Source of the DNA: an uncultured Actinomycetota bacterium
Lineage (GTDB): Bacteria; Actinomycetota; Humimicrobiia; Humimicrobiales; Humimicrobiaceae
Assembly: GCA_964603595.1 (NCBI GenBank)
Contig: CAZRVN010000004.1
Location: 148,678 to 212,677, forward strand
DNA: 64,000 bases
Direction of reading: 5' to 3'
Numbering within the stretch: position 1 is the first letter of the stretch; the number at the start of each line of letters is the position of its first letter. The notes beneath the pieces are model-generated. The model saw only the letters and a program-made list of their open reading frames with translations, was not told where the DNA came from and made no database searches. Positions 9,663 through 46,361 of this stretch are shown piece by piece. The position numbers and the translations under genes were made by a program.

Positions 9663-9676
9663 CATTTTTCTTATAT

Positions 9677-18749: not shown

Positions 18750-19346
18750 TTACTCAGCACCTTCCAGAATATATACCAGCCCATAATTTTCAAACACCCT
18801 TTTCATCTCCTTTTCCGCCTCTATAAAGAGTGCTTCCGTATCAAGATAGAGCTTTTCTATTTTTGGCTCATCAAATGTGGAATAATTTCCGCTTTCATAA
18901 TATGACAGCACAAGATTTATGGTTTCAATGTCACTATCAATAAATTCCAGTTCATAATTATAAAAAGTCTCAAGCGGGGCCGGGATATTCTCAATAAGGA
19001 GTAATTTTTCCCTGTAACCGGTTACCGCATCACGCCTTTTAGATGCAAGCTCTTTTAGCTGGCCTACGTTTATAAACTCGCTGTCAAGTTCTTCTGATAA
19101 TTCAACTGTCTTTTCAATAAATTCATCCTTAAGCGGCCTGAACTTTTGGTAATACTCTGCAATCTCCCTCGCTTCTTCTGACTTTATCTCTTCAAGCATC
19201 TCAATTTCCCGCCTTGCCTCTTCTTCCAACTCTCTGCGGTTTTCTATTTTCTGCATCTCCATGGAAAATACATTGTATATTACAAGTGCTATAATAATTA
19301 TAACCAGTATCAATGCAGCTAATTTTTCTTTATTTAACTTACTCAT
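18750..19346 (-). CDS. Sortase-associated membrane-anchored coiled-coil protein (copy 1). Function unknown.
   Basis: It has an N-terminal transmembrane segment and an E/R-rich heptad region (EEEARREIEMLEEIKSEEAREIAEYY). It lies directly downstream of sortase 1. It is clearly paralogous to the ORF at 23936-24514. Confidence 0.6.
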   Translation of the reverse strand: MSKLNKEKLAALILVIIIIALVIYNVFSMEMQKIENRRELEEEARREIEMLEEIKSEEAREIAEYYQKFRPLKDEFIEKTVELSEELDSEFINVGQLKELASKRRDAVTGYREKLLLIENIPAPLETFYNYELEFIDSDIETINLVLSYYESGNYSTFDEPKIEKLYLDTEALFIEAEKEMKRVFENYGLVYILEGAE

Positions 19347-19354
19347 TTAATCCA

Positions 19355-20170
19355 TTATTTAACCTCGATAGATGCTATTTTGAGGGGATATATATTTATA
19401 AGTTCTGATATTAATACAATCCTCTCAGCTGCAGAATATTCCGGGTGGCATGAAGTAAGCAAAAGCTCTTTTTTACCAGTACCTTCCAGAATATATACAT
19501 CCTCTGGACCGACTATTTCCAATTCACTGACAGCATAGATAAAAGTCCCGCTTTCTGTCGTTTCAAGATAAATCAGGTCACCTTCAAGAAGTTCATCTAT
19601 CCTATTAAAGGGTGAGCCGTAAGTAGTCCTGTGACCGGAAATAGTGCACCTTCCGGTATCACCCGGAAGCGGGGTTCCCTCAATATGCCCCGGCCCACTT
19701 GTTAAAGTCAGTATGTCAGCCCCCTCGTTTACTATCCGCTCCAGCTTAATTCTGGGGATCTTAATCTTCAACGGGAAAAAGTCTTCCGCAGTTAGATTAC
19801 TGTAGTCTAATATTTCCCTACCAATATCAAAGCCAATTTCAATATCCCCGTAATCTGCAGTGTCCCGGCTGACGGACCCTTCCAGGGTTTTACCATCTTT
19901 AACGCTATCCTCTGAGGCAGTATTTTCTGAAGTGGTTCCAGAATCCCCTGCCAGCCCGGTTGTAGTGGCCCCCTCCTCTGATAGAGCCGCTTCCTGTGAT
20001 CCCCACTTTGATAAAATATCTTCCTGTCTCAATGTTGTTATGATATTTATATACAAGGGATATAATAAAAATAATATTACCGCGAAAGCTGCTAGAAACA
20101 ACGTTACCTTAATTATTCTTGACACTTTGACTTTTGAAAACTTTACTTTTTTCATATCATCAGGACGCAA
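19355..20170 (-). CDS. Sortase (copy 1)
   Basis: It has an N-terminal transmembrane anchor. The catalytic triad context is conserved, with His in GHRTTYG, Cys in LLLTSCHP (the TLxTC motif) and the following Arg. Confidence 0.8.
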   Translation of the reverse strand: MRPDDMKKVKFSKVKVSRIIKVTLFLAAFAVILFLLYPLYINIITTLRQEDILSKWGSQEAALSEEGATTTGLAGDSGTTSENTASEDSVKDGKTLEGSVSRDTADYGDIEIGFDIGREILDYSNLTAEDFFPLKIKIPRIKLERIVNEGADILTLTSGPGHIEGTPLPGDTGRCTISGHRTTYGSPFNRIDELLEGDLIYLETTESGTFIYAVSELEIVGPEDVYILEGTGKKELLLTSCHPEYSAAERIVLISELINIYPLKIASIEVK

Positions 20171-22346: not shown

Positions 22347-22979
22347 ATGAATCAAGTTAAAAAAATTAAAAAACTGGAAAATCTCAGCTATTTTAATAAA
22401 GATACCATATCGCAGTTTGTTGATATAAATAAAAACGCTCTTTCGCAAGACGTTAAGAGATGGATTCAAAATGGTACTTTAATACAGCTAAAAAAGGGGT
22501 TTTATGTTACCTCAAATTATTTTGAAAGACTGGGAAACAAAACTCCATACCTTGAATTTATATCAAACAAACTGAGGGAGCCGTCATATCTAAGTCTGGA
22601 ATATATTTTACAAAAATACGGAGTATTAACGGAATCAATCTATTCTATTAATTCCATAACCATCAAATCAAGTAGAATATATAGAAACAATCTTGGTCTT
22701 TTTATATACAGGAATATAAAAGATGAGCTTTTTACAGGTTTTAATATCACGGAAAAAAATGGCTTTATAGTTAAGGAATCTACAAAAGCCAAGGCCCTTT
22801 TTGACTGGCTCTATTTAAGAATGTTAAGATTTAAAAAAATAGACCTTGCTGTGATGGAATCATTCAGATTGAATCTTGAAAACTTTAAGAAAAAAGATTT
22901 TAAGGAATTTAAAATATATTGTGAGCTTGCAGGTATAAAAAAATATTTAAAACTTGCAGAGATAATTAAAAAAATATAA
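22347..22979 (+). CDS. abiEi: AbiEi-like antitoxin/transcriptional regulator (type IV TA / abortive infection)
   Basis: 210 aa. It lies directly upstream of a DUF1814/AbiEii-family nucleotidyltransferase gene with a 10-nt gap. Its size and position fit AbiEi. Confidence 0.6.
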   Translation: MNQVKKIKKLENLSYFNKDTISQFVDINKNALSQDVKRWIQNGTLIQLKKGFYVTSNYFERLGNKTPYLEFISNKLREPSYLSLEYILQKYGVLTESIYSINSITIKSSRIYRNNLGLFIYRNIKDELFTGFNITEKNGFIVKESTKAKALFDWLYLRMLRFKKIDLAVMESFRLNLENFKKKDFKEFKIYCELAGIKKYLKLAEIIKKI

Positions 22980-22989
22980 CTGCTATAAA

Positions 22990-23841
22990 ATGATTTATAG
23001 AGAACTAGAAAAAATATTAATCGAAGAAAGAGACAGAGGCTCGCATGATGCTTATATCCTTAACTTATTAAAGGAGTATCTTCAGGTATATGTACTCTAC
23101 TTTATCTATACAAATTCTAAATATAATAAAAATCTTATTTTTACCGGCGGCACCTGCCTAAGACATTTTTATAATCTGCCGAGACTTTCAGAAGACATAG
23201 ATTTTGATTTTAAGGAGAATTTTGACCGTAAGATTTTGCTTGATGACCTTGAAGAATATTATAAAAAAAGATATAAGTATAATGAAATAAAGCTGGCTTT
23301 AAAGCAGCGCGGAGAACAGATATTGCTAAAGTTTCCAGTTTTACATAAACTGGGTCTGGCAGAAGAAGATAAAAGCAATCTGCTATTTGTAAAGCTCGAT
23401 TTTTCAGTAAACCCATCAAAATACTTTAACCTCGAGACTACTTCAAAATCCATTTATGGTTTTAATTTTGCGGCAGTTCATTATGACCTGTCTTCCCTTA
23501 TGTCCGGCAAAATACACGCTATTTTGGTAAGAAAAATATTTAAGGGTATCAATAATACCGAAGTGATTAGAGGCAGGGATTATTTTGACCTCCTATGGTT
23601 CTTAAAAAAATCTATCAGACCCAATCTAAAAAGACTTTCAGAAATGCTTGGCACCAGCATTAGCATGAATTTTCTTGTAAAACAACTGGATTTAAAAGTT
23701 AAGGAGCTTGCCAGGAAACATAAGTCATTTTTAAAATCTGACATTGCCCCACTTATAAGCAGCCCTGATTTTATAAAAATCTATGTGGATAATTATTACG
23801 AGGAATACATGAGAAATAAAAAGAATCTCTTCCAGGAATAA
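22990..23841 (+). CDS. abiEii: AbiEii/AbiGii-family nucleotidyltransferase toxin
   Basis: It carries LIFTGGTCLRHFYNLPRLSEDIDFDF, the GG[ST]xL and [DE]x[DE] nucleotidyltransferase motifs typical of AbiEii (DUF1814). The product is 283 aa. Confidence 0.7.
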   Translation: MIYRELEKILIEERDRGSHDAYILNLLKEYLQVYVLYFIYTNSKYNKNLIFTGGTCLRHFYNLPRLSEDIDFDFKENFDRKILLDDLEEYYKKRYKYNEIKLALKQRGEQILLKFPVLHKLGLAEEDKSNLLFVKLDFSVNPSKYFNLETTSKSIYGFNFAAVHYDLSSLMSGKIHAILVRKIFKGINNTEVIRGRDYFDLLWFLKKSIRPNLKRLSEMLGTSISMNFLVKQLDLKVKELARKHKSFLKSDIAPLISSPDFIKIYVDNYYEEYMRNKKNLFQE

Positions 23842-23935: not shown

Positions 23936-24514
23936 TTACTCAAAAAGATATCTCATCTCATATTGTCTGCATACATTATATAACTCTTCCTCAGCCCTCT
24001 GGTAAAGCAAACCGGTTTTCAGGTAAAGCTCATTTAAGATACTGCTATTATATGTTGAGTAGCTTTCACTGTCATAATATGAAAGCACAAGCCCGATGGT
24101 TTCAATATCGCTTTTTATAAATTCAAGCTCATAGTCATGGAAAGTTTCAAGCGGGGAAGGGACGCTCTCAATCATAAGAAATTTATCCCTGAATGCAATT
24201 GCAGCATCAAGCCGGCGAGATACAAGCTCTTTTATCCGGTCTATATTTACAAACTCGCTTTCCATCTCTTCTGATAATTCAATCGTTTCTTTGATAAATT
24301 CATCCCTGGCAGGCTCAAACTCAAGATAATATTCTACAACCTCTCTCGCTTCTTCTAACTTTATCTCCTCAAGCATCTCCCTTTTGAGCCGTTCTTCTTC
24401 TCTGGCTTCTCTCTCTGCTGCTATCTTCCCGTGTTCAACAAGGATAACATTAAGACCGACCAGAATAACTGCTGCTAAAAGAATTACAAGGGCTATTTTA
24501 CTTTTTCCTTTCAT
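23936..24514 (-). CDS. Sortase-associated membrane-anchored coiled-coil protein (copy 2)
   Basis: It is paralogous to the ORF at 18750-19346 (AEREAREEERLKREMLEEIKLEEAREVVEYY). Its start overlaps the sortase 2 stop by 4 nt (ATGA). Confidence 0.6.
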   Translation of the reverse strand: MKGKSKIALVILLAAVILVGLNVILVEHGKIAAEREAREEERLKREMLEEIKLEEAREVVEYYLEFEPARDEFIKETIELSEEMESEFVNIDRIKELVSRRLDAAIAFRDKFLMIESVPSPLETFHDYELEFIKSDIETIGLVLSYYDSESYSTYNSSILNELYLKTGLLYQRAEEELYNVCRQYEMRYLFE

Positions 24515-25230
24515 TTCACCCCTCCATAAATATCCAGACCCATCGGATAGAGATTCAGGAGCTCAGAGATTACAACCAGTCTTTTCGCACCGGAATATTT
24601 CGGATGGCAGGTTGTAAGCAAAAGTTCCTTCTTATATGAGCCCTCAAGTATATATACATCTTCGGGGCTAACGATATCCATACCTGTAACAGCATACACG
24701 AATAATTCCTCCTTAATAGTTTCCAGATAAATAAGGTCTCCTTCTTCAAGCTCATCAATCCTGTTAAAAGGCGAGCCGTAAGTCGTTCTGTGGCCGGATA
24801 TCGTACACCTCCCGGTATCTCCGGGAAGCGGCGTTTCAGAGATATGGCCGGGCCCCTGCTCTAGGGATTGGGGTTCCGCCCCCTCCCAGGAAACAAGCTC
24901 AAGGCCTATCCGCGGGATAGTCAGTTTCGCAGGAAAAAAATCCCCCGATGTTAATGCACTATAATCCAGGCCGCCATTAATCTCATATTGTGCACCACCG
25001 CCGGAAGTGTTAAAAGTCTCCATGTCTGCTTCCGCACCACTGCTATCTTCGTCTGCTTTTTCTTCTTCAAGTAAAGCTTCTTTACCTTCCTCCCACTGTG
25101 ATAAATAAGACGCCCTTTCCTTTTCGGTTAAAATATTTGAATAAATAAGGTAAAAAAGAAATGACACAGTCAGTACAGCAAAAATACAAAGCAGAATAAT
25201 CTTTATTTTTTGTTTCCTGGTTTTATCCAT
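24511..25230 (-). CDS. Sortase (copy 2)
   Basis: It has a transmembrane anchor and the motifs GHRTTYGSPFNRIDEL and LLLTTCHP. It is about 75 percent identical to sortase 1 across the catalytic domain. Confidence 0.8.
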   Translation of the reverse strand: MDKTRKQKIKIILLCIFAVLTVSFLFYLIYSNILTEKERASYLSQWEEGKEALLEEEKADEDSSGAEADMETFNTSGGGAQYEINGGLDYSALTSGDFFPAKLTIPRIGLELVSWEGAEPQSLEQGPGHISETPLPGDTGRCTISGHRTTYGSPFNRIDELEEGDLIYLETIKEELFVYAVTGMDIVSPEDVYILEGSYKKELLLTTCHPKYSGAKRLVVISELLNLYPMGLDIYGGVK

Positions 25231-25342: not shown

Positions 25343-28300
25343 TTACTTCCTTCTGAACTTCTTTTTCAGTGAAGCTATGAACATTGCCAGTCCACCCAGT
25401 ATTATGGAAACACCGGATATTGGAATAGCAGGATTCATTCCAGTGAATGGAAGTTCCGTAATACCCAATACCTCTATCCCACCATCAGGAGGTGTCTTGG
25501 AGTTAGTTCTGCTGAAACTATGGTTTCTCTTAGCCGAATTAACTTCTATTCCAGTAATATCACTCATTTTTGAATAACCTGACGGCACGGTAGTTTCTAC
25601 AATTCTGTAGGTACCGAATGGGAGATTTCCCCAGCTTACAGTACCATTTCCGGTTATCTTCTTTTCTCCGCCAACTGCAGCACCATTTGAATCATACAGG
25701 GTAAATCCTGCAACATCGGTAGAGTCAAGCCCGCTCTTTGTAAGGGTTACCGAACCACGATAGCTAACCTTTTTCGTGTTTTCTCTGTCAAAGGTGTAGC
25801 TCTGCTGGCCTTCATTTCTGGAATCAATAACTATTCCGGTAATATCTGCTATAGTATTATATCCGGAAGGAGTGGTTGTTTCCTTTATTGAGTATGTATC
25901 CCACTCAAGATCCGTCCAGACAACCGAACCGTTACCTGTTACCGTCTTTTCTCCTCCTACAGGATTATTACTTGAATCATACAGTGTAAATCCTGCAGTA
26001 TCATCATAATCAAGACCGCTCTTATTAAGTGTTATATCTCCAGGTATCCTCGGGTCAGCTATTTCCTGCGTAAGGATAACATTCGGAGTTTCGCTATTCA
26101 AACCAAATACAAACTCACCGATAGGCGGATTCCCGAAAAGCAGATATCCCGCTGGAGCACTTGCTTCTACCACTTTATAAGTTCCATATGGCAAGTCTAT
26201 CCATTTGTAGTGGCCATCAGGACCAAGGATCTGTGTATCAACCAGAATCCATGAACCCTCTCTATACAATTCAAATGTTGATCCGCCAAGAGGCAGCCCT
26301 GTAACAGCATCAGTCTTGAATATTTCAATGGAGCCCTTCTCGGCACAGTTCTCTATAACTACGGGAACTTCTGCACCTATATCACCTTCAATTGTTCCTG
26401 ACCATACCGGATTAGAAACTGTGTAGGTATATAAATTGGTTATTCCATTAAAGTCTTCAAGTATGTAGTAATCACCATAAGGAAGGTCTATCCAGCTTGC
26501 AGTTCCGCCGTTTGATACTGTCTGCGGTGAAGTAGCGATCAGGTTATCACTAGAATCATACAGTGACAGATTTGCCTCATCGTCTCCTTCAAGCCCTATC
26601 TTTGTAACTGTAATGGAGCCCTTCTCTGCAGTGTTTACCACTTCGACCGTAGGATTTTCGTTATCCGGACCGATAACTACCGGGTCGGATGATAGGTCTG
26701 TTGTGTAAGTAAATACGTTACCTGAAGGATAACTCTCTGTTAGGGTATAAGAGCCAAATGGAAGGTCAATCCATCCACCTGTTCCACCTTCACTCAGAGT
26801 GATATCAGTATAAGGGCCACCAGGGCCAGAAAGTGAGAATATTGCCTGGTCGCTCTCTTCCAGTCCAGTCTTGTGAACCGAAATGGAACCCTTCTCGGCA
26901 GTATTAGTTATAGTATCAGTTTCATCACCATCAACAGTGATATTAGCTACCGGATTAGAAACCGTATAGGTATATACGTTGGTTATTCCATTAAAGTCTT
27001 CAAGTATGTAGTAATCACCATAAGGAAGATCTATCCAGCTTGCAGTTCCGCCGTTTGATACTATCTGCGGTGAAGTGGCAATCAGGTTATCACTAGAATC
27101 ATACAGCGAAAGGTTTGCCTGATCATTACCTTCAAGACCTGTCTTTGTAACTGTAATTGAACCCTTCTCGGCAGTGTTGACTACCTCAATCGTCGGCCAT
27201 GTATTATCCGGGCCAATTATTATAGGATCGGACGAGAGGTCTGTTGTGTAAGTATATACGTTACCAGACGGATATGTTTCGGTTAAAGTGTAGCTACCAT
27301 ATGGCAGTTGTTGCCAGTGAATACTTCCATGATTCCATATCGACGCACCACCATAAGATACTCCGCCTGGGCCTGTAAGTGTAAAGGTCGCCCTATCGCT
27401 TCCCTCAAGACCTGTCTTGTGGACCGTAAGGTCGCCCATCTCGGCAGTGTTAGTTATGGTGTCAGTCTCATCACCATCAACGGTAATGTTTGCAACAGGA
27501 TTAGAAACCGTATAGGTATAGACGTTGGTTATTCCATTAAAGTCTTCGACTATATAGTAGCCGCCGTAAGGAAGGTCTATCCAGCTTGCCAATCCACCAT
27601 TTGATACTGTCTGCGGTGAAGTGGCAATCAGGTTATCACTAGAATCATACAGTGAAAGGTTTGCCTGATCATTACCTTTAAGACCCATCTTTGTAACCGT
27701 AATGGAGCCCATCTCGGCAGTGTTAGTTATGGTATCAGTTTCATCACCATTAACGGTAATATCAGCAACAGGATTAGAAACCGTATAGGTATATACGTTG
27801 GTTATTCCATTAAAGTCTTCGACTATATAGTAGCCGCCATAAGGAAGATCTATCCAGCTTGCCAATCCACCATTTGATACTGTCTGTGGTGAAGTGGCGA
27901 TCAGGTTATCACTAGAATCATACAGCGAGAGGTTTGCCTCATCGTCTCCTTCAAGACCTGTCTTTGTAACTGTAATGGAGCCCAAAGGACAATCTACGAT
28001 ATCTTCAACTGCATTTAATGCGCCACCTGTCATGAATAATGCGGTTCCTCCGATATAAACAGTATAAGTAGCCGTATCAACGGCGTATCCCGGAGGAGCA
28101 CTTTCTTCAGTTAACGAATATGTACCCCATGGCAGTCCATCTATAAATGCATTGCCATCCACATCTGTGGTTAAAGTATATTCCGTTACATCAGGTGTGA
28201 AAGTCTGGCCGCCGATATAGGTCAGCTTGTATACCGCACCTTCAACCGGACCCTGGGTCTCGGAATCAGTCTTGTTAAGCTCAAAGCTTCCCCATGCAGT

Positions 28301-29704
28301 ATAAGTGCCGGAATCGTCATCACACGGCTCACTGTAGCTTTCTATAACGAATCTCTGGTCGTATGCTTCGGGGTATGTGATTTCCTCATCATGCCATTCC
28401 CTATCTTCAAAGTAGTAGCCAGCAGGTTTGGTAACCGAAGGGGCACCATTTTCCCAATGACTCCATACTATACCAGTCTCTTGTGTCCAGTATGTACCTA
28501 TCCAAACATCTTCATACGTCCCATAAATTCCGTCCTGTCCCTGTTTTTCAGTAACTACCATCTTACCGGCATTGAAATAGTCAATATCCACATTATCCGG
28601 ATTTTCAGTAATTACATCTCCATTTACGTCAGTTGCAACTATATGCGGGGAATTATAAGATCCCGGATCCTCTGTATCATCATAATCAGGATTTTCAATA
28701 GTCTGTATAACATTCATATTTGAATTGAACTCATCAAGGTCTTCTCCCTGTTCCTTGTCAATCTCTCCATCCTCATCAATATCAAGACATGCGCCTATGT
28801 TAACAGACATTTCCTCAAATTCGGAATAACCTTCTCCCCACCAGTAGAAATAGTATGGGATGCTTGCAAAACCGTAATTATCATCGGTTATCGCGCCATC
28901 GCCATCGGTATCCTCGGCATTACTGCCGTCATTATCATCCTCGTAATCATACATAGTGGAAGTAGTTTCAAGTACAAGGTCCGTCTGTGAAAAACTGACA
29001 TTATATGAACCCAAGAGCACATACCAGGAAACAGTTTTACCTTCATCGGTAATACCCGGAACCAGAGGATTTTCCATTGTAGCAGTAGCTTCAAATTCAT
29101 TATAATCGCCATTTTCATCTACCAGAGTATCCGCATCAAGGGCCACTTCTACTTCATTTACATTTTCATCATCCAGATATTCCTGCAACGACACGTCATT
29201 ACTAGGATCAGTATCATTGTTTTCAGGCAGTGCGACAAAACCATCTGCCATGGTCATAACTGCAAGTACTACTTCTTCCACATCATCATTAGGAGTGTAG
29301 TCCACATTATTATCTATTATATCCCACACAGCATCCTGATTTTGACCATCGGTAGCACCTGTAGCAGTTGTTGCCATGATCTCGGCTGCCTCAGCATTTA
29401 CTTCATCAACACCATTTGCCTGAAGCTCATCCGATACATCCGTACCTGTTTCGCTGTAAGCATCCGTAGCGTCGGTCAAGGTTACATCTTCATCCACACA
29501 ATAAACATCCATCTCTTCACCTGCAGGCGCCTCCTCAGGTTCATCGGAATAATCAGCATCATTAGGATCCATTTCATATTGGCCATTATCCGGTCCTTCT
29601 GCAGTTGAATTATCACCGGGTTCACCAAATAGGAAAGATGGTGCTGTGAAGAATACGATAAGAACAATCCCCAGGCATAACGCCATAAGTCTTTTTAATT
29701 TCAT
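25343..29704 (-). CDS. Giant sortase-anchored surface protein. It has a signal peptide, an acidic region, tandem Cna-B/SpaA-like domains and an LPFTG sorting signal.
   Basis: 1453 aa. The signal peptide reads MKLKRLMALCLGIVLIVFFTAPSFLFG. The N-terminal 300 aa are D/E-rich. SpaA-type motifs TYxxxExxAPxGY occur (TYKVVEASAPAGY, TYRIVETTVPSGY). The C-terminus reads ELPFTGMNPAIPISGVSIILGGLAMFIASLKKKFRRK, which is a sorting motif, a transmembrane segment and a basic tail. Confidence 0.85.
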   Translation of the reverse strand: MKLKRLMALCLGIVLIVFFTAPSFLFGEPGDNSTAEGPDNGQYEMDPNDADYSDEPEEAPAGEEMDVYCVDEDVTLTDATDAYSETGTDVSDELQANGVDEVNAEAAEIMATTATGATDGQNQDAVWDIIDNNVDYTPNDDVEEVVLAVMTMADGFVALPENNDTDPSNDVSLQEYLDDENVNEVEVALDADTLVDENGDYNEFEATATMENPLVPGITDEGKTVSWYVLLGSYNVSFSQTDLVLETTSTMYDYEDDNDGSNAEDTDGDGAITDDNYGFASIPYYFYWWGEGYSEFEEMSVNIGACLDIDEDGEIDKEQGEDLDEFNSNMNVIQTIENPDYDDTEDPGSYNSPHIVATDVNGDVITENPDNVDIDYFNAGKMVVTEKQGQDGIYGTYEDVWIGTYWTQETGIVWSHWENGAPSVTKPAGYYFEDREWHDEEITYPEAYDQRFVIESYSEPCDDDSGTYTAWGSFELNKTDSETQGPVEGAVYKLTYIGGQTFTPDVTEYTLTTDVDGNAFIDGLPWGTYSLTEESAPPGYAVDTATYTVYIGGTALFMTGGALNAVEDIVDCPLGSITVTKTGLEGDDEANLSLYDSSDNLIATSPQTVSNGGLASWIDLPYGGYYIVEDFNGITNVYTYTVSNPVADITVNGDETDTITNTAEMGSITVTKMGLKGNDQANLSLYDSSDNLIATSPQTVSNGGLASWIDLPYGGYYIVEDFNGITNVYTYTVSNPVANITVDGDETDTITNTAEMGDLTVHKTGLEGSDRATFTLTGPGGVSYGGASIWNHGSIHWQQLPYGSYTLTETYPSGNVYTYTTDLSSDPIIIGPDNTWPTIEVVNTAEKGSITVTKTGLEGNDQANLSLYDSSDNLIATSPQIVSNGGTASWIDLPYGDYYILEDFNGITNVYTYTVSNPVANITVDGDETDTITNTAEKGSISVHKTGLEESDQAIFSLSGPGGPYTDITLSEGGTGGWIDLPFGSYTLTESYPSGNVFTYTTDLSSDPVVIGPDNENPTVEVVNTAEKGSITVTKIGLEGDDEANLSLYDSSDNLIATSPQTVSNGGTASWIDLPYGDYYILEDFNGITNLYTYTVSNPVWSGTIEGDIGAEVPVVIENCAEKGSIEIFKTDAVTGLPLGGSTFELYREGSWILVDTQILGPDGHYKWIDLPYGTYKVVEASAPAGYLLFGNPPIGEFVFGLNSETPNVILTQEIADPRIPGDITLNKSGLDYDDTAGFTLYDSSNNPVGGEKTVTGNGSVVWTDLEWDTYSIKETTTPSGYNTIADITGIVIDSRNEGQQSYTFDRENTKKVSYRGSVTLTKSGLDSTDVAGFTLYDSNGAAVGGEKKITGNGTVSWGNLPFGTYRIVETTVPSGYSKMSDITGIEVNSAKRNHSFSRTNSKTPPDGGIEVLGITELPFTGMNPAIPISGVSIILGGLAMFIASLKKKFRRK
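26317..27982 (-). repeat. Tandem near-identical repeats of about 280 bp inside the surface-protein gene
   Basis: Protein-level units of about 92 aa (GSITVTKTGLEG.D.ANLSLYDSSDNLIATSPQTVSNGG.ASWIDLPYG.YYI.EDFNGITNVYTYTVSNPVA.ITV.GDETDTITNTAE) recur four times. They are interleaved with two copies of a related B unit. Long stretches are visibly identical at the nucleotide level. Confidence 0.8.
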
Positions 29705-29754: not shown

Positions 29755-30060
29755 TATTTTTTCCCCCTCTTTATTTTAGGTTAATTTATTATTTAAAACC
29801 GACCCCCATAGCCAGTTGAGTTATTTTTAAAAATCCCTATATAAATACAAAAACCGACTACATTTAGTCGGTTTCGCTATTTGCTCCTCTTTTCTCAAGC
29901 GTCCAAATTAGAGAAAAGCATCAAAGCTACTAAATCAAAAATTAAGCTATTTCTTCCTTTGCTCTCTATTCAATAAAAGTATTTTATAAATTTTATATAA
30001 CTATAATATTTAAGTGATGAAATTATACTACATCTTTAAGAAAAATACCAAACTTTTTTT
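29705..30060 (-). promoter_or_regulatory. Promoter plus structured 5' leader (copy 1 of a duplicated ~200-bp element) upstream of the LPFTG protein gene
   Basis: On the minus strand there is a -35/-10-like pair near 30040-30010. Hairpin B (CTTTTCTC...GAGAAAAG, 29888-29918) comes next. Hairpin A (CCGACT-N6-AGTCGG, 29854-29871) follows and is trailed by UUUUU. Confidence 0.5.
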
Positions 30061-30177: not shown

Positions 30178-31248
30178 CTAAAAATCCACTTCAACTCCCG
30201 CATCCCTTAATTCATCTACCTGGCTTTCATCTGCAACAGGATTGCCTTTAATATAAAGCTTCTGTAAATTCGGAAGTTCCTTTAAAGCTGAGATGTCTGT
30301 TATTTCATTATCTTCCAGCCAGAGTGATTCAAGGCTTTTAATCTTTGAAAGTGATGAAATATCAGATATCTTATTCTTTGAAAGAGCCAGCTGCTTTAGA
30401 TTTTCCAACTCTGCCAGCGGTGATATATCTTCTATCTCACACTCGCTGAGACTTACAATCTCTAATTTTTCCATTTCACCCAGCGCTGATATATCTGATA
30501 ACGGGTTATTGCCCAGCATAATTAATACAAGATTAGATAAGCTTGATAACGGGCTGATATCTGATACATTATTGTTAGCCAGGGAAAGGTTCTTTAGATT
30601 TTTTAATTCAGATATAGCGCCAACATCTGCTATCTGGTTCCTGTTTAAACCCAGAACCTCTAAATTAGTAAGTTCTAATAAAGAGGGGATATCTACAATC
30701 AGATTATTATCCAGAACAGCCACCTTTAATTTATCAAGACCTATTAATGGAGAGATGTCTAATATTTCATTTTTGCCCAGACTGACACTTTCTAAATTTA
30801 CTAAATCCTCAAGCGGTCCTATATCTGTTATTTTATTATCATTCAGCCCGAGATTTGCAAGACTGTTAATATTAGAAAGAGGTGATATGTTACTGATTAG
30901 ATTACCATTTAGATTTAATATACGTAGTTTTGTAAGTTTTGACAGGGGTGATATATCAGTTATTTCATTATTGTTTAAACTTAGATTTTCTAAGTTTACA
31001 GCATCTTCAACGCCTGAGATAGTTTTTATCTCCATATTGTCTGCAAATAATTTATCCATTGACTCCATATCTTCAGCGCTTATTTCTTCACCGGTTATGC
31101 CCAGCTCTTCCTTCTCAGCTTTTAAAAGGTTCGGGTCGCTTGCTCTCTTAAATAAACTGCATCCCGGAATACTAACTGATATAATTAACGCTAAAATAAA
31201 TACCGGTGCTGCATAAATAAATTTTTTCATATATATCTTATGTTCCAT
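30178..31248 (-). CDS. Leucine-rich-repeat (internalin-like, 22-residue LRR) lipoprotein
   Basis: About 12 tandem LRRs of the form NLxxLxLxxNxIxDISPLxxLxxL are present. The N-terminus MEHKIYMKKFIYAAPVFILALIISVSIPGC is a signal peptide with a lipobox Cys. The track ORF start at 31341 would read through a terminator hairpin and is rejected. Confidence 0.75.
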   Translation of the reverse strand: MEHKIYMKKFIYAAPVFILALIISVSIPGCSLFKRASDPNLLKAEKEELGITGEEISAEDMESMDKLFADNMEIKTISGVEDAVNLENLSLNNNEITDISPLSKLTKLRILNLNGNLISNISPLSNINSLANLGLNDNKITDIGPLEDLVNLESVSLGKNEILDISPLIGLDKLKVAVLDNNLIVDIPSLLELTNLEVLGLNRNQIADVGAISELKNLKNLSLANNNVSDISPLSSLSNLVLIMLGNNPLSDISALGEMEKLEIVSLSECEIEDISPLAELENLKQLALSKNKISDISSLSKIKSLESLWLEDNEITDISALKELPNLQKLYIKGNPVADESQVDELRDAGVEVDF

Positions 31249-31429
31249 TTGAAATTTAAATAAAAAAAACCGACTGCATTTAGTCGGTTTCGCTACTTGC
31301 TCCTCTTTTCTCAAAGCGTCCAAATTAGAGAAAAGTATCAAAGCACCTAAATTAAAATAAATATTTTAATATCTAAATTATTATATTTTTATAACGGGAT
31401 TATATTACATTTTTTACTAAAATGTCAAA
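31231..31429 (-). promoter_or_regulatory. Promoter plus structured 5' leader (copy 2 of the duplicated element) upstream of the LRR lipoprotein gene
   Basis: The minus strand carries TTGACA (31429-31424) and a TATAAT-like -10 (31404-31399). Hairpin B is next. Hairpin A (31270-31287) comes next, followed by eight U residues that end about 14-30 nt before the start codon. Confidence 0.55.
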
Positions 31430-31548: not shown

Positions 31549-32181
31549 ATGAAAATAAAAAAATTCTATAAAAAACATAAAATAAAAATTATAAGATACA
31601 CCGGAATAGCCCTGATAATAATGGGGCTTTCGGTTATAATATGGCCCTTCTACACCAGCTTTATCATGGCAAGAAGAGAACTGGATATACTCTCCTCATG
31701 GGAAGAAGAAACGGAATTAACCGGCGGTGAAAAAGGTGATGGAATAAATGGAAAGCTTGAAAAAGAAAATATTCCCGTTGATACAGAGAAAAAAGTCCCT
31801 TTCAGGATTACAATCCCCGATATTGAGCTGGACTGGATTGTCAATAAAGGAACCGACTACGCAACTTTAAGAAAAGGACCGGGCTATTACATATCCTCTG
31901 CTCTCCCGGGCGAAGAAGGCACCTGCCTTGTGGCCGGTCACAGGACTACCTACGGTGCTCCCTTTAATAGACTGGGTGAGCTTGAAGAAGGTGACGAAAT
32001 AATAATAGAGACAGAAGGTAACGAAAAATTCACCTATATAGTTACGGGTATGGAAGCTGTACTCCCCACTGACATGTCTGTCCTTGAAAATACTGATTAC
32101 CCTTCCCTGGTGCTGTCAACCTGTACACCAAAATATTATGCCACGAGAAGACTTATAATATATGCAAGGATTGCAGAATAA
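31549..32181 (+). CDS. Sortase (copy 3)
   Basis: It has a transmembrane anchor and the motifs AGHRTTYGAPFNRLGEL and LVLSTCTP, followed by the conserved Arg. The product is 210 aa. Confidence 0.8.
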   Translation: MKIKKFYKKHKIKIIRYTGIALIIMGLSVIIWPFYTSFIMARRELDILSSWEEETELTGGEKGDGINGKLEKENIPVDTEKKVPFRITIPDIELDWIVNKGTDYATLRKGPGYYISSALPGEEGTCLVAGHRTTYGAPFNRLGELEEGDEIIIETEGNEKFTYIVTGMEAVLPTDMSVLENTDYPSLVLSTCTPKYYATRRLIIYARIAE

Positions 32182-38432: not shown

Positions 38433-39347
38433 TTAAAGCTGCATTTTTGCTGCTTTTAAAGTATTTTTAAGAAGCATCGCAATTGTCATCGGGCCAACTC
38501 CACCGGGAACAGGTGAAATATAGCCAGCTTTGGGCTCCACTTTTAGAAAATCCACATCTCCTATAAGAGTAGAACCCTTTTTCTCAAAGTCTTCCTTTCT
38601 CCATTCAAGAAGTTCCTTACTTGCTTTATCTTTTGTTATCCTGTTAATTCCCACATCTATAACCACTGCGCCTTCCTTAACCATATCTTCTTTAATTAAG
38701 TAAGGAACACCGGCAGCAACAATAAGGATATCAGCTCCTGAAGTACTGAACTTCAGGTCCCTGGTTTCAATATGACATATTGTAACAGTAGCCCATTCAT
38801 TCAAAAGGAGCAGCGATGTCGGTTTGCCCACTATTTCACTGTGCCCCACCATGGTAGCATTCTTTCCCTTTATGGTTATGTTTTCTCTCTTCAGCATTTC
38901 TATAATGCCGGATGGAGTAGCGGGAACCAGGCAATCCTGCTGCGCTATCAGTCTTCCCGTATTTATGGGATGAAATCCATCCACATCCTTTTCCGGGTAT
39001 ATAGCTTCCAGGACCTCTGCCTTATTTACCTGTGGCGGCAACGGAAGCTGGACAAGGATGCCATGGATATCATCCCTCTGGTTAAGCTTCTTGATTTCAT
39101 CCAGAATATCCCTGTTAGATATACTTTTATCCATCCTTATTGTCTCAGAATAGAATCCAACCTCATCACAGCCCTTCTTTTTATTTCTTATATACACTTC
39201 CGAAGCAGGGTTATCCCCTACCAGTATCACTGCCAGACCCGGTGCAACTCCCCTGGTTTTTTTTAGTTCTTTTACTTCTTCTGTTATTTCTTTTTTTATA
39301 TCCTGTGATATCTTCCTGCCGTCAATTAATTTAGCTATTTTAATCAC
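38433..39347 (-). CDS. folD: Bifunctional methylene-THF dehydrogenase / methenyl-THF cyclohydrolase
   Basis: 304 aa with GLAVILVGDNPAS, YIRNKKK and PGGVGPMTIAML motifs. Confidence 0.88.
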   Translation of the reverse strand: MIKIAKLIDGRKISQDIKKEITEEVKELKKTRGVAPGLAVILVGDNPASEVYIRNKKKGCDEVGFYSETIRMDKSISNRDILDEIKKLNQRDDIHGILVQLPLPPQVNKAEVLEAIYPEKDVDGFHPINTGRLIAQQDCLVPATPSGIIEMLKRENITIKGKNATMVGHSEIVGKPTSLLLLNEWATVTICHIETRDLKFSTSGADILIVAAGVPYLIKEDMVKEGAVVIDVGINRITKDKASKELLEWRKEDFEKKGSTLIGDVDFLKVEPKAGYISPVPGGVGPMTIAMLLKNTLKAAKMQL

Positions 39348-39481
39348 CCCTGTTATCTAAAAAATATAATGAACCTACAAAAAAAATTACCTTAAAATGA
39401 GTTCTTAATAAACCAACCCATTGGCGCCAGAAAATAAAATCATATTAAAAAACAAAAAATATTAAAATGCACTGCCTGCTC

Positions 39482-40831
39482 CTATGCAGTGTACTCCTTC
39501 AAAAATTTGGGGACTTCTGCTCCCTCACGGGGACCAACAATAACTTTCCATCCTTCTCCCAGCTCTTCCTCAAGCTCACCCTGCATCTGGGCTACGTATC
39601 CCGGTATCACTATCTCCCTTTTCTTTACCTTCTCGACAATACCGCTTTTCTTTATATATTGGGCAATCAATTCGGGAACAAACTTACCAGCAGCCCACGC
39701 AGTAAGAACCGACTGCCCTTCTACATCCATAACTAAAAGCCAGGTTGGAACCTTGCTGTTTTCCACTTCACCAGAAATTATAAAATAAGTAAGTGAAAAA
39801 TTAGTTGTAATAAGTATCGGCGACTTATCATCCGGTTTTCCTATTTCATATACTTTCTGCTCTACCTGCATCGGCCTCCTCGGGTCTGTATATATGTTCT
39901 GCCTGTAAATAAGGAGCGGAAAAATATTCTGGTAATCAACATTAGAGAGAACAATAATTGAGCTATACTTGGATACAAAAGCAGATGCTATTAAAGTTTC
40001 CTTTAAGGAATCTCCTGTCATTTCATTGGGAAAAACTATAGTCGGGTAGCCATAAAGCCGGTTTTTCTGTTTTATGGCAGACATCCTTAACAGAACCTGG
40101 CTACGGAAATCTTCTTTAAAATTCCTTGAGCCAATATCTATCACCAGATTCTTAATTCCCCCATTACGCATCTTTCCGGTAATATCCGCTATATCTTCAA
40201 ATGTCCTGCCCCTAACTACTATCGGGCAACCGGTTTCTTTACCAACATTAACAAAAAAATCTATACTATCTGCAGTAGCTGCGTGGAGCAGGGGTTTCTT
40301 CTCTTTATAAGCTTCTGCCGCACTTTTTAATGTCTCTTTATCTTCTGAAATTAATATCAAAGGTTTCTTTGTAAGTGAATTAACTTTCTTTATTACCTCC
40401 ATAAACTTATCTTTATTCCTGGATTTATTTTTGATGCAGACAGCATTAACTTTTAAAACCTGGTCTACCCTCTCATAGGCAATTGAATTTACTTTTTCAA
40501 GCAACTCTTCAATCTTGCTTATGCCAAGTTCATCATCAATTGACAATGCAAATGCGTTCTGGTTTACAAATGTCCTTTCATGTCTGTGCAGCACCATTTC
40601 TTCACCAACCACAAAAGAATCTTCGCCTGTTCCCACTTCCACTTTTAATATAGGGGGCTGGGAAGCTTCTGCAAGTTCTTTTTTTACTTCATCAGAAAGA
40701 TGCGGACATCTGTCCAGCTCAACTTTTCCGGCTGCAATCTGCATAGCGAAAGCCAGGCATGTTGGAAACCCGCAATCCTTGCAGTTTGTCTTTGGCAGTT
40801 TCTTAAATATTTCAAGACCGCTCAAGCCCAT
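39482..40831 (-). CDS. acsC: Corrinoid iron-sulfur protein large subunit (CFeSP gamma, AcsC/CdhE)
   Basis: 449 aa. The N-terminal [4Fe-4S] motif TNCKDCGFPTCLAFAMQIAAGKVELDRC is present. It sits in the acs gene context. Confidence 0.8.
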   Translation of the reverse strand: MGLSGLEIFKKLPKTNCKDCGFPTCLAFAMQIAAGKVELDRCPHLSDEVKKELAEASQPPILKVEVGTGEDSFVVGEEMVLHRHERTFVNQNAFALSIDDELGISKIEELLEKVNSIAYERVDQVLKVNAVCIKNKSRNKDKFMEVIKKVNSLTKKPLILISEDKETLKSAAEAYKEKKPLLHAATADSIDFFVNVGKETGCPIVVRGRTFEDIADITGKMRNGGIKNLVIDIGSRNFKEDFRSQVLLRMSAIKQKNRLYGYPTIVFPNEMTGDSLKETLIASAFVSKYSSIIVLSNVDYQNIFPLLIYRQNIYTDPRRPMQVEQKVYEIGKPDDKSPILITTNFSLTYFIISGEVENSKVPTWLLVMDVEGQSVLTAWAAGKFVPELIAQYIKKSGIVEKVKKREIVIPGYVAQMQGELEEELGEGWKVIVGPREGAEVPKFLKEYTA

Positions 40832-40886
40832 TCCATACTCTCCTTACCTTAATTTTGTGCATACATGCACTTTCACAATTTATTAT

Positions 40887-43067
40887 CTAAAGCATTGATT
40901 CCATTTCCAGAACCGGATGTTTTACTTTCTGTATCCATTCCAGTACTTCTTCTTCAGTTTCTGCCTCTTTTTCAGTAGCAACCTTTTCAAGAAAATCTTC
41001 TATTCCCATTCCCTTAGCCCTCTCCTCCAGCAAATCCCTTATTTCTTCTTTTAACCCTCCGGGCATCCATACCAGTCTTTTCAATCCGCCATCTGCCTTT
41101 ATAAATTTCTTTGAGCCGATAAAAAATTTGCTGATGCCTATAAAACCAGGGGTCTGGATCCCCCCACCAACCATACCGGCCATAGTTGAAAACTTCATAC
41201 CGCTTGGCGTCATTCCGGGATATTCCCTGTTTACCGCCATTACTCCATTAGTGGAAGGCAGGATGGTAACTATCACTTCAAAACAACCACAGGAAGTCAT
41301 GGGATTTATCATCATTGAATACGCCGAAAAAGATTCCAGGGTTTGATTGGAAGCTTTATAAACAAATTCGTTTACTCCTTTCCATACCCCCAGTTTTTCA
41401 TCAAGTACCTCACCTTTCTTTATGGGCTGGTTAGGTCCGGTTGGATTAATCTCGTAAGACGCTTTACAATCAAGCCAGTTGTATGCACCGCAAAGGCCCG
41501 GTCTCTCAGGTGAAACCGCACATACATGATTCGGAGCAAATGACTGGCACAGCGTACAGGAATAAAAAGTATCCACACTTTCATCAGTCAGGCTGCTCAG
41601 TCTCTCATCCCTTTCCCTGAAAACTTCCTTTGCTCTTTTTTTCAGCTTTGAAACATCATCAGGTTTTGTATAAATATTTATCTGGATTTTATCCATTATA
41701 TTGCCGAAATCCGAGTGCATCCTGGCATGCAGGATATTCCCCAGATGCCTGATTTTAAAACCGGCTTTTACCGCATCTTTGCTGAACCTGAGCCAGGTAA
41801 TATCTCTCTGGCCCATATGGAATATACCGGTAGCATAATTGATAAAATAATGTATCTGCCTTTCCATAACCGGCTCAAAATCTTCTTGCATCTTTCTTCC
41901 GTAAACCAGAACTTCAATTCCTAAAGGAAGCACCCCTCCTTCTTCTACATCATCTACCTCCGGGCCGATTACCTCAATCTTTCCATCCTCCACTTTTAAA
42001 GAAGGGGCAGCATGAAGAAATTCCACCGCCTCGCTTCTATTTCCGCCAAATTCAATATAAGTGTTCGCTCTTCTCACTCTTTCACCTTCAAAAGCAGGTC
42101 CAAAAGCTACAGGAATATCAACCTTCTCTACGGTAATCTTTAAGCCCCTTATCTCTATCGCTTTTGAAACAACCTCCTCATCGGGAATATTAGAAACTAC
42201 ATGTTCGTAGGTGCATATTCCCCTGGGTAATATTTCAGGAATATTTGTATTGGCAATTGTGGGGAACCCATAATTTATGGCACCTGCGGCATTAGCTACC
42301 TTTTCTTCATCTACTTCACCAAGAGCCAGGACAAATGCGAAAACCCTGTTTTTATTATATAAAAGCATTCTTTTGTAATCTCCCGGCTGAATTCCGCCGA
42401 AGCTAAGGGCAACCCTGGTTGCAAATCCAAGTGAATAAATAGTAGCACTTACATCCTTTCCAAAGGGTACCAGCCTGGTATCCCATCCCAGTTCTACCCC
42501 TTCTTCCTGAAGCTGCTCGGCCATTGATATACCATTGGTAGAAGCTGACATAAAAACATAAATATTTTTTTCCTGAAGTTCCCTTGCAATCTTGACTGCA
42601 GTCTTGCTGTCCCTGCAGGCCCCTACACAGGCAGCAAACCCCGGCGCCGTCCCATCTACAAACTCAATTCCTCTTTCCCTTATAATTGCATCTACAGCAG
42701 AACCCAGCCATATACCGCTAACAGGTGACGAGCCATCTATATATTTTATAGCTTCTATTATCTCCTCTGCCCAGAGTGTTGCTACTCCTGCATCCAGTGT
42801 ATTCCCAAGATAGGGGAGCCATAATTTTTCACCGGGGACAGGTGGGAGTAGTTCCTTTGCCTTATTTATAACTTTCTCTCCATCCCCTAATTTTTCTACT
42901 TTTTTTCCAGTCATGCCGTATATAATAGGAAGAAAGTAACCGGTATCGGGAAACTCCAGCTTCTGGTCTCTTCCATACTTACCAATGCAATCATTAAGCT
43001 CTTTTTCTGCACGTTCAACAATTTTATATGCACCTTTAACAGCAATAGATGCAACTATTTTAGACAT
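40887..43067 (-). CDS. acsB: Acetyl-CoA synthase (ACS, A-cluster subunit; AcsB/CdhC)
   Basis: 726 aa. The A-cluster motif SCGCFE is present. It overlaps cooS by 8 nt. Confidence 0.85.
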   Translation of the reverse strand: MSKIVASIAVKGAYKIVERAEKELNDCIGKYGRDQKLEFPDTGYFLPIIYGMTGKKVEKLGDGEKVINKAKELLPPVPGEKLWLPYLGNTLDAGVATLWAEEIIEAIKYIDGSSPVSGIWLGSAVDAIIRERGIEFVDGTAPGFAACVGACRDSKTAVKIARELQEKNIYVFMSASTNGISMAEQLQEEGVELGWDTRLVPFGKDVSATIYSLGFATRVALSFGGIQPGDYKRMLLYNKNRVFAFVLALGEVDEEKVANAAGAINYGFPTIANTNIPEILPRGICTYEHVVSNIPDEEVVSKAIEIRGLKITVEKVDIPVAFGPAFEGERVRRANTYIEFGGNRSEAVEFLHAAPSLKVEDGKIEVIGPEVDDVEEGGVLPLGIEVLVYGRKMQEDFEPVMERQIHYFINYATGIFHMGQRDITWLRFSKDAVKAGFKIRHLGNILHARMHSDFGNIMDKIQINIYTKPDDVSKLKKRAKEVFRERDERLSSLTDESVDTFYSCTLCQSFAPNHVCAVSPERPGLCGAYNWLDCKASYEINPTGPNQPIKKGEVLDEKLGVWKGVNEFVYKASNQTLESFSAYSMMINPMTSCGCFEVIVTILPSTNGVMAVNREYPGMTPSGMKFSTMAGMVGGGIQTPGFIGISKFFIGSKKFIKADGGLKRLVWMPGGLKEEIRDLLEERAKGMGIEDFLEKVATEKEAETEEEVLEWIQKVKHPVLEMESML

Positions 43068-45009: not shown

Positions 45010-45045
45010 TCTATTTGCGACACCATCTCTTTAATAGCCAATAAA

Positions 45046-45987
45046 TTATACTAATCCCTGCATAAACTCCTTAATCAAACTTACCGCCCTGGGATGCCTC
45101 ATTATCAGAATATCCGCACCGGCAAGCAACATACTCATACTTGTAATGGCCTCCCAGTTTATTCCTCTTTCCTCCTGGTTGCCCCACTGGGGGTAATGTT
45201 CCTCACTTTCCTTAACTTCTTTTAATTTCCATACCTCAGGCGCGACATCGGTTATAATAGGCATCTGAGTCATTTTATCATCCTGCATAAGTGCAGCTAT
45301 TTTTAATCTCTCCATAGCAGAGTAACAATATTCTATTCCGTAACCCAATCCGGAGGTTGAAGGGTCCATCGCTATATAATTATTCGGCAGGCCCAGCTGG
45401 GTAAGCAGTATATTCAGCTGTTTTGCAATGTTTACATCAAGCGGATTTAATGCTACGACATTATTTTTATATCCTATTGCCGAAGCCGCCATAGTTTTAT
45501 AATTATCTTCCTCAACCCAGCCCATTAAAATCTTTTCATCCTTATTTTTTTCAGAAATCTTCTTCATTACTTCAGCAATTTTTTCAAGAGGTCCTGTTCC
45601 ATACACTATCAGGGGCCGGGTTATAGATTCCCTTAAGGTTTTGACTATCTCTGCTGCCTCTTCCGGAGACAGGTCCTCATTTTCCGGATTTATCCTTGTA
45701 AGTCTGAGGCATATGGCATCAGCTCCATACCGGTTAATACTTTTTTTTGCCCATTTTACAGGGTCATCAGAAACATCACTGTAATACTGGCTTACTACTT
45801 CAGGCCAGTCTTCAGGTTTTTTATCATAAACTTCCATAGCAATAATTGGCCTGTTTGGTATTTCACCTTCAAAGCTGTAAAAAGGAAGGGCGGATTCTCC
45901 GCCCACCAGGATTTTATTATCACCTTTACCCAGTTCCAGCACATTAACCTTTCCTGAATAAATATTTTTTGGAATCTTGAAGCTCAA
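45046..45987 (-). CDS. acsD: Corrinoid iron-sulfur protein small subunit (CFeSP delta, AcsD/CdhD)
   Basis: 313 aa with a TIM-barrel pterin-binding-like fold pattern. It lies between the RACo gene and cooS. Confidence 0.7.
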   Translation of the reverse strand: MSFKIPKNIYSGKVNVLELGKGDNKILVGGESALPFYSFEGEIPNRPIIAMEVYDKKPEDWPEVVSQYYSDVSDDPVKWAKKSINRYGADAICLRLTRINPENEDLSPEEAAEIVKTLRESITRPLIVYGTGPLEKIAEVMKKISEKNKDEKILMGWVEEDNYKTMAASAIGYKNNVVALNPLDVNIAKQLNILLTQLGLPNNYIAMDPSTSGLGYGIEYCYSAMERLKIAALMQDDKMTQMPIITDVAPEVWKLKEVKESEEHYPQWGNQEERGINWEAITSMSMLLAGADILIMRHPRAVSLIKEFMQGLV

Positions 45988-46361
45988 GTCTATCTCATCT
46001 CCTCTGATTAGTATTGGCTATCATTAAAAAATTCTCTTCCTTGAAAAAGCACAATTATGACATTTTATCATTTTTAAAATAAAACTTCAGTTTGTTTTTA
46101 TAACTAATTCAGTATAAAACATAAAATCTTTAAGGAAAGCTATTTATTAAAAAAACCATAACCATAATCCAGGCTTCCCAATTGAATTTCTTTCTCTCAA
46201 TTAATGGTTGCCGGAAACTCATATACACAGGCCAGCTACCGGGATATATCTTGTAAGGATGACACTTATTCCTTAAAATCTTCTAAATAATACCATTAGA
46301 ACCGGCATTTTAATCCCTTACTTATTTATATACTCCCAGCTTTATTTAAAAATCCTTTTTT

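Follow-up and report, generated by a model that had tools for sequence, protein, structure and literature searches.

Several families of bacterial surface proteins resemble the one described here, each in a different part. TIE adhesins (thioester, isopeptide, ester domain), among them Bacillus anthracis BaTIE (PDB 6FWV), combine a signal peptide, a thioester-type head at the N terminus, a CnaB-type isopeptide stalk and an LPXTG anchor. CdTEP of Clostridioides difficile has a large class II thioester domain of 408 aa with long insertions; it has been validated experimentally, and its thioester has been seen by mass spectrometry (PMC4450167). All four class II cyclic di-GMP (c-di-GMP) riboswitches of the same species are ON switches, and two of them lie in the leaders of genes for sortase-dependent adhesins, CD2831 and CD3246 (PMC6366702; PMC6447587). 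The Periscope proteins SasG, Rib and Aap carry a functional head on a wall-anchored rod of tandem, stable Ig-like domains, vary in domain number between relatives and are defined by very high DNA identity of their repeats (PMC9704523). We analysed a 64,000-nt stretch of DNA (the window; contig CAZRVN010000004.1) from an uncultured Actinomycetota bacterium, in which one gene for a 1453-aa adhesin brings together a head with a thioester-like signature, a stalk of ten CnaB/SpaA domains, a cell-wall sorting signal and a c-di-GMP-II riboswitch. We think it probable that the product is a monomeric, sortase-anchored, c-di-GMP-induced adhesin of the TIE type, in an uncultured, low-GC member of the Actinomycetota with a close affinity to Candidatus Humimicrobiia.

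The adhesin head and its thioester-like signature

An initial reading of the DNA, made from the letters alone (the sequence-only reading), had proposed a 1453-aa adhesin-like protein, and we confirmed a single open reading frame (ORF) for it, on the minus strand. The N-terminal head (residues 28-471) had no match in Pfam, and no thioester-domain model was hit even at E <= 10. A search with the full-length protein was swamped by its SpaA repeats and gave six matches, and the head alone was used as the query instead. Exhaustive searching then found 35 cluster representatives among 1.84 billion proteins; all named homologues came from metagenome-assembled genomes of Actinomycetota. Scanning metagenomes added a single locus, and the genome scan was made without the window's own genome.

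Three motifs have been published for thioester domains: [YFL]C-phi-zeta, TQxx-phi-W on helix alpha-2, and phi-Q-zeta-phi-phi (PMC6194298). In the head, the first reads VYC69VD, with the Cys present in 34 of 34 homologues and a family context of [YFLHI]C[IVL][DNE]. The second reads NQ123DAVW and lies on a predicted helix; Gln is found in 34/34 and Trp in 31/34 homologues, and Asn or Asp stands in place of the initial Thr. The third, (Y/D)Q450RFV, lies beside a predicted strand. Its Gln occurs in 30 of the 31 sequences that cover the column, which is invariant in the trimmed alignment, and Gln450 would be the bond-forming residue. The head family has about 37 invariant columns, and four of them are the thioester signature residues (Cys, Gln, Trp, Gln), each in its expected motif context.

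An AlphaFold model of the head built from the 35-homologue alignment reached a predicted local distance difference test (pLDDT) value of 86.8 and a predicted template modelling (pTM) score of 0.86. In a ranked comparison, BaTIE, FNE, SfbI-TED and Cpa were placed within the top six, with SaTIE-TED and PnTIE-TED lower. The head family is rare and conserved, and its fold may resemble that of thioester domains; we consider with moderate confidence that the head is a thioester domain with a predicted internal Cys69-Gln450 bond. Compared with BaTIE and other TIE proteins, this head is missed by the Pfam thioester-domain model PF08341 and carries two additional elements, a DxDxDG loop and a hypervariable segment. 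Its Cys and Gln are also much further apart, 381 residues here and 314-551 across the family, versus 129-153 in solved class I and 171-204 in solved class II domains (PMC6194298). The size of the head has a precedent in the validated domain of CdTEP, to which we liken it by description.

The head might instead be a non-covalent, Ca2+-dependent binding domain, for example a lectin-like one, in which Cys and Gln are structural and any likeness to thioester domains is remote or convergent. Such a domain would fit the lack of a sequence-level match to any thioester-domain model, the invariant DxDxDxxxD loop, the presence of a second loop, DTDGDG, and the extreme acidity. However, published thioester domains are only 12-23% identical to one another (PMC6194298), so that failure of sequence searches is to be expected. 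The four signature residues among the invariant columns also speak for a thioester, as does the distance from the Cys to the Gln of QxxxW, which matches that of a Pfam-recognised thioester protein (54 residues here and 55 there). We regard the non-covalent alternative as possible but doubtful.

Calcium binding by the acidic N-terminal 300 aa had been suggested in the sequence-only reading. Residues 28-330 do consist of 28% Asp+Glu and only 0.7% Lys+Arg, and Asp+Glu make up 26-28% of the head as a whole. The exported leucine-rich repeat (LRR) protein, solute-binding protein and sortase encoded in the window are acidic as well (pI 4.0-4.5) whereas its cytoplasmic proteins are not, and acidity is therefore not specific evidence for calcium. 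A narrower form of the suggestion has some specific support from the alignment: the loop DIDEDGEID, which we take to fit the DxDxDG calcium-loop pattern, keeps its four Asp residues in 33/33 homologues and is a candidate Ca2+ site.

An aromatic-rich hypervariable segment lies directly ahead of the Gln450 strand. It ranges from 10 to 201 aa across the head family, and some versions contain internal peptide repeats. In two alleles, P0001 and P0002, the segment is entirely different while its flanks are ~95% identical, as in a cassette. The segment probably sets specificity.

A ten-domain stalk, its repeat array and its anchor

Ten stalk domains were mapped along residues 472-1412, versus three in BaTIE; most homologues are proteins of 560-770 aa with one or two. 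Canonical SpaA/Cna-B motifs of the form TYxxxExxAPxGY, which had been noticed near both ends of the repeat array, are indeed present at aa 528 (TYSLTEESAPPGY) and aa 1175 (TYKVVEASAPAGY). Pfam SpaA (PF17802) matched four stretches of the adhesin above threshold (E = 1.2e-66), and the A and B units of the array, taken singly, fell below its gathering threshold (14-22 bits versus 23.1). When a profile of all ten units was compared with solved structures, BaTIE (6fwv) was the best match (E = 9e-26), followed by the Bacillus cereus major pilin BcpA (3kpt, E = 1.2e-21); a CnaB2 domain and SpyCatcher were also matched. In the ten-unit alignment, a Lys in the first strand and a Glu in the YxLxE box are invariant, and Asn fills the third triad position, in the last strand, in all units but S1, which has Asp. 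These positions align with the Lys/Glu/Asn triad of BcpA. The AlphaFold model of unit A1 (pLDDT 93.5) has seven strands, in keeping with a prealbumin-like beta-sandwich, and Foldseek aligned it to BcpA, the CnaB2 domain and BaTIE with template modelling (TM) scores of 0.68-0.70. The Cna-B-like, isopeptide-type nature that had been proposed for the repeats was borne out by these results: the stalk domains have the CnaB/SpaA fold with a conserved isopeptide triad. Each domain is predicted to lock itself by a Lys-Asn/Asp isopeptide bond.

The central part of the stalk is an array of six units of 90-95 aa, detected by Tandem Repeats Finder with a period of 273, 92% matches and a score of 939. The number of units and the two subtypes agree with the sequence-only reading, but the subtypes do not strictly alternate, the order being A1-A2-B1-A3-B2-A4. 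The same reading had called the repeats near-identical, which holds for A1, A2 and A3 (88-92% pairwise DNA identity) and fails for A4 (78-82% to the other A units) and for B1 versus B2 (65%). It had also noted long runs of nucleotide identity; the longest exact run between any two units is 50 nt. Outside the array, S2 and S3 are 50% identical as proteins.

We considered whether the array is a contingency locus of the Periscope kind, in which slipped-strand or unequal recombination would make both the length of the stalk and its antigenicity vary within the population. At the identity of A1-A3, exact runs of 43-50 nt are enough for homologous recombination. The sites with variants shared between A units show phylogenetically incompatible patterns (0011, 0110 and 0101), which would fit old copies with occasional past gene conversion. 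Relatives also vary in unit numbers: the homologue at locus L015 has two units of the A type and lacks both B units and S3, and P0001 and P0002 each have a single B-type unit. The repeats, at 65-92% DNA identity, are nevertheless well below the near-perfect level of Periscope proteins (PMC9704523), and most codon differences among A1-A3 are synonymous (synonymous:non-synonymous 12:6, 16:9 and 21:7), which indicates long divergence of old copies under purifying selection.

An exact look-up of the adhesin protein returned no record, and independent assemblies of the same population were found through the exact sequence of the neighbouring sortase protein (eight contigs from several samples). Three of these, which come from different samples, extend across the whole array: L016 (all 4362 nt of the gene), L017 (3073 nt) and L018 (3958 nt). 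They are colinear with the window at 99.97-100% identity and show no difference in repeat number, although these are consensus assemblies, in which minority length variants may remain. A contingency locus is therefore unlikely, and the earlier picture of an array that actively expands and contracts was not upheld. The array is best explained by duplication, accompanied by some gene conversion, that lengthened the stalk specifically in this lineage; today the array is stable. Because domain number differs between related species, expansion has taken place over evolutionary time. By itself, the repeat array is ordinary.

At its ends the adhesin carries the elements that the sequence-only reading had listed for a sortase substrate. 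The N terminus, MKLKRLMALCLGIVLIVFFTAPSFLFG, has a basic stretch followed by a hydrophobic one, and the C terminus has the form LPFTG-MNPAIPISGVSIILGGLAMFIASL-KKKFRRK, with LPFTG at aa 1418-1422. Homologues end similarly, in (V/I)LGIxELPFTG or VLAFTG. A sortase gene lies directly downstream, and the sorting signal together with this gene supports the adhesin as a sortase substrate; the adjacent enzyme is likely to anchor it. The sorting motif of C. difficile, (S/P)PXTG, differs from the LPFTG/LAFTG of the adhesin family here. No PPEP-1/ZmpI-type releasing protease or Pro-Pro cleavage site turned up in the scanned part of the window.

Three sortase genes lie within 13 kb, at 24511-25230 (-), 19355-20170 (-) and 31549-32181 (+). 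The first two are each paired with a gene for a membrane/coiled-coil protein of 192 or 198 aa (23936-25230 and 18750-20170, both minus strand); neither partner protein has a Pfam or NCBIfam match. A strong terminator-like hairpin directly follows the adhesin stop codon. That the adhesin is a pilus subunit polymerised by one of the three sortases is highly improbable and was rejected: SpaA-type domains, the nearby sortases and a weak C-terminal NCBIfam match to SpaH/EbpB major pilins (26.6 bits versus a cut-off of 95) would allow it, but the protein has no YPK pilin motif anywhere and the sortases score best as class E instead of class C (all below cut-offs), whereas BcpA is a polymerised pilin with both a pilin motif and a class C sortase. 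In addition, the adhesin is encoded by one structural gene that has a leader and a terminator to itself, and a large head within 1453 aa is the layout of monomeric TIE adhesins such as BaTIE (PMC6194298).

A c-di-GMP-II riboswitch in the adhesin leader

The leader of the adhesin gene contains a c-di-GMP-II riboswitch aptamer ~150 nt from the start codon. It overlaps an intrinsic terminator (-17.2 kcal/mol, z = -4.6), the 5' arm of which is made of aptamer nucleotides (AACCGAC and the 3' strand of P1). The terminator hairpin is kept in 10/10 related riboswitches, with one compensatory change from an A-U to a G-C pair (5:4). Homologues in at least seven loci (L001, L006, L008, L009, L012, L013 and L014), with proteins 31-57% identical, have the same riboswitch directly upstream. 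Because the 3' nucleotides are shared, aptamer and terminator should be mutually exclusive, and the ligand should prevent termination, which would make this an ON switch. Adhesin expression thus appears to be switched on by c-di-GMP, as that of CD2831 and CD3246 is, although those proteins have a different head domain and belong to the Bacillota, not the Actinomycetota.

A promoter-like site upstream of the aptamer could start this transcript, judging from its match to consensus. An upstream ORF of 17 codons lies between the riboswitch and the adhesin. It has a strong Shine-Dalgarno sequence, and its stop codon overlaps the adhesin ATG (ATGA), which could give translational coupling; no equivalent was evident in the L001 leader. 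Coupling to a group I ribozyme, as at C. difficile CD3246, was considered and rejected, as only ~150 nt separate aptamer and start codon and Rfam reports no intron. No genes for GGDEF or EAL proteins were present among the 20 neighbouring ORFs scanned.

A second c-di-GMP-II riboswitch lies nearby, upstream of a gene for an internalin-like LRR lipoprotein. It has the same terminator design, in which a U tract follows a hairpin whose 5' arm comes from the 3' nucleotides of the aptamer. The adhesin and the LRR lipoprotein, two adjacent surface proteins, thus appear to be co-regulated by c-di-GMP, and the lineage of the adhesin seems to use this riboswitch widely for surface proteins. A perfect promoter match (TTGACA-18-TATAAT) precedes the LRR-gene riboswitch at 31399-31428. 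Further genes for LPFTG-type surface proteins lie beside the adhesin gene in L015 (3230-5005) and L001 (5788-7098), and in L001 the gene next to the adhesin has its own c-di-GMP-II riboswitch.

Table 1. Features of the adhesin locus, in window positions and adhesin residues.
Feature	Positions	Strand	Residues	Basis
Second c-di-GMP-II riboswitch (31273-31357) with internalin-like LRR lipoprotein gene (ATG at 31230)	30178-31357	-		Rfam RF01786, 61.9 bits versus gathering 53.5, model positions 1-84; terminator; LRR matches in Pfam/NCBIfam
Promoter-like site, TTGGTA, 18-nt spacer, TATAAT, ~80 nt upstream of aptamer	30022-30051	-		Consensus scan, 10/12 matches; consensus match only
c-di-GMP-II riboswitch aptamer, adhesin 5' leader	29857-29940	-		Rfam RF01786, 57.9 bits versus gathering 53.5, E = 3e-10, model positions 1-84
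Intrinsic-terminator hairpin GAAACCGACUA/UAGUCGGUUUU then U tract; expression platform	29840-29875	-		Terminator scan
Upstream ORF MKNKIINMCLLLGGERI, 17 codons	29701-29754	-		From sequence
Adhesin coding sequence, 1453 aa	25343-29704	-	1-1453	ORF list; same gene in independent assemblies
Signal peptide (approximate)	29624-29704	-	1-27	Basic N terminus then hydrophobic core; read from translation
Acidic head domain, thioester-domain-like	28292-29623	-	28-471	Cys69 at 29498-29500; Gln123/Trp127 at 29324-29341; Gln450 at 28355-28357
DIDEDGEID loop, DxDxDG-type candidate calcium site	28757-28783	-	308-316	Family alignment; weak EF-hand resemblance
Hypervariable segment	28361-28558	-	~383-448	Family alignment; P0001 versus P0002
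Stalk domain S0, canonical SpaA/CnaB, triad K478/E533/N564	27983-28291	-	472-574	Pfam SpaA; ten-unit alignment
Six-unit array	26336-27982	-	575-1123	Tandem Repeats Finder and repeat search; pairwise identities; triads; unit model
Unit A1	27710-27982	-	575-665	
Unit A2	27437-27709	-	666-756	
Unit B1	27164-27436	-	757-847	
Unit A3	26891-27163	-	848-938	
Unit B2	26621-26890	-	939-1028	
Unit A4	26336-26620	-	1029-1123	
Stalk domains S1-S3, canonical SpaA/CnaB	25469-26335	-	1124-1412	Pfam SpaA; ten-unit alignment
S1	26042-26335	-	1124-1221	
S2	25757-26041	-	1222-1316	
S3	25469-25756	-	1317-1412	
Cell-wall sorting signal: LPFTG (25439-25453), hydrophobic segment, KKKFRRK tail	25346-25453	-		From translation
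Terminator-like hairpin, 15 pairs, directly after adhesin stop codon	25288-25320	-		Terminator scan
Sortase gene, 239 aa, directly downstream of adhesin	24511-25230	-		Pfam PF04203, E = 3e-29; best NCBIfam match class E, 107 bits, below the 160-bit cut-off
Membrane/coiled-coil partner gene, 192 aa, overlapping sortase stop codon	23936-24514	-		54% identical to the product of 18750-19346, which adjoins the second sortase gene (19355-20170)

Proposed mechanism, alleles and meaning of the locus

A c-di-GMP-induced TIE adhesin would work as follows. Transcription would start upstream of the riboswitch. With ligand absent, the 3' part of the aptamer would pair with downstream sequence as an intrinsic terminator, and the transcript would end before the gene; with c-di-GMP bound, the shared nucleotides would be kept in the aptamer and RNA polymerase would read through. 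The signal peptide would direct export of the protein, and the adjacent sortase would cut it at LPFTG and join it to the cell wall. The ten CnaB/SpaA domains, each locked by an isopeptide bond, would hold the acidic 440-aa head away from the wall, where its internal Cys69-Gln450 thioester could react with a nucleophile on a presumed target surface. The DxDxDG loop would offer a candidate Ca2+ site, and the hypervariable segment would probably set specificity.

Several observations weigh against this reading. For the head, a Foldseek search of the model against the PDB gave only noise (TM < 0.2), none of the 35 family members matched PF08341 even at E <= 1, and the head-family profile found no thioester-domain chain in the PDB. 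With a PF08341-containing thioester protein, hhalign aligned only the SpaA part and hmmsearch found nothing in the head. For anchoring, the best matches of the three nearby sortases, to class E, are all below the NCBIfam cut-offs. For regulation, the ON direction is suggested by the logic of the overlap and by analogy to C. difficile. Finally, inactivating changes in three other assemblies of the same population mean that the adhesin may often not be made.

The adhesin gene is intact in the window and in L017, and each of the three other assemblies has a different inactivating change. In L016, codon 607 is changed from CAG to TAG (window position 27886); in L018, one extra A shifts the frame at codon 587 (27946); and in L014, 4 nt (GCGA) are duplicated in tandem at codon 270 (28895). 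These changes may be true loss-of-function polymorphism or assembly errors. In a sister species (L002-L005, protein P0001), the adhesin is fused in frame to a sortase catalytic domain, in five contigs from different samples. The fusion keeps the head, S0 and one B unit and has lost the remaining stalk together with the sorting signal. The fusion gene has no c-di-GMP-II riboswitch upstream; one is present in antisense orientation between this gene and ligA.

An AbiEii-type toxin gene and an upstream 210-aa ORF occupy the opposite strand (22347-23841, +), separating the sortase operon from the genes that follow; the sister species (L002) lacks this unit in its syntenic region. Elsewhere in the window (8768-11938 and 38433-48296) we found an IS1595-family transposase adjoining a fused type I restriction-modification methylase/specificity gene, and the Wood-Ljungdahl genes CdhD, RACo and FolD, which fit an anaerobic, acetogen-like lifestyle. 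LigA shares 85% identity with its counterpart in an 'Actinomycetota bacterium' genome and 74-78% with Candidatus Hydromicrobium (class Candidatus Humimicrobiia). On L009, an uncultured Actinomycetota contig, positions 1-200 match the 3' portion of an ornate large extremophilic (OLE) RNA at 166.9 bits. OLE RNA is usually associated with anaerobic Firmicutes.

Every component of the locus belongs to a known kind, and the head family, which is divergent enough to escape current family models, appears new. So does the consistency with which the family is paired with the riboswitch in Actinomycetota. Nearly all work on thioester adhesins to date concerns Firmicutes pathogens, and the best-known sortase adhesins under riboswitch control are those of C. 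difficile; the present locus suggests that free-living, uncultured Actinomycetota unite a covalent tip, a cross-linked stalk and c-di-GMP gating. As a small family (35 representatives) with clear invariant residues, the heads offer a tidy test case for wider detection of thioester domains, and they could help show how specificity is encoded beside a reactive bond. A bolder and tentative idea is that the heads form an unrecognised thioester class confined to uncultured anaerobic Actinomycetota, a covalent 'harpoon' produced solely at high c-di-GMP by way of a riboswitch kept throughout the family, in which a specificity cassette sits by the Gln, the Ca2+ loop tunes reactivity and null alleles form a population on/off polymorphism. 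If this were true, the null alleles, in three of five assemblies and together with the sister-species fusion, would reflect on/off polymorphism of covalent adhesion and not variation in repeat length.

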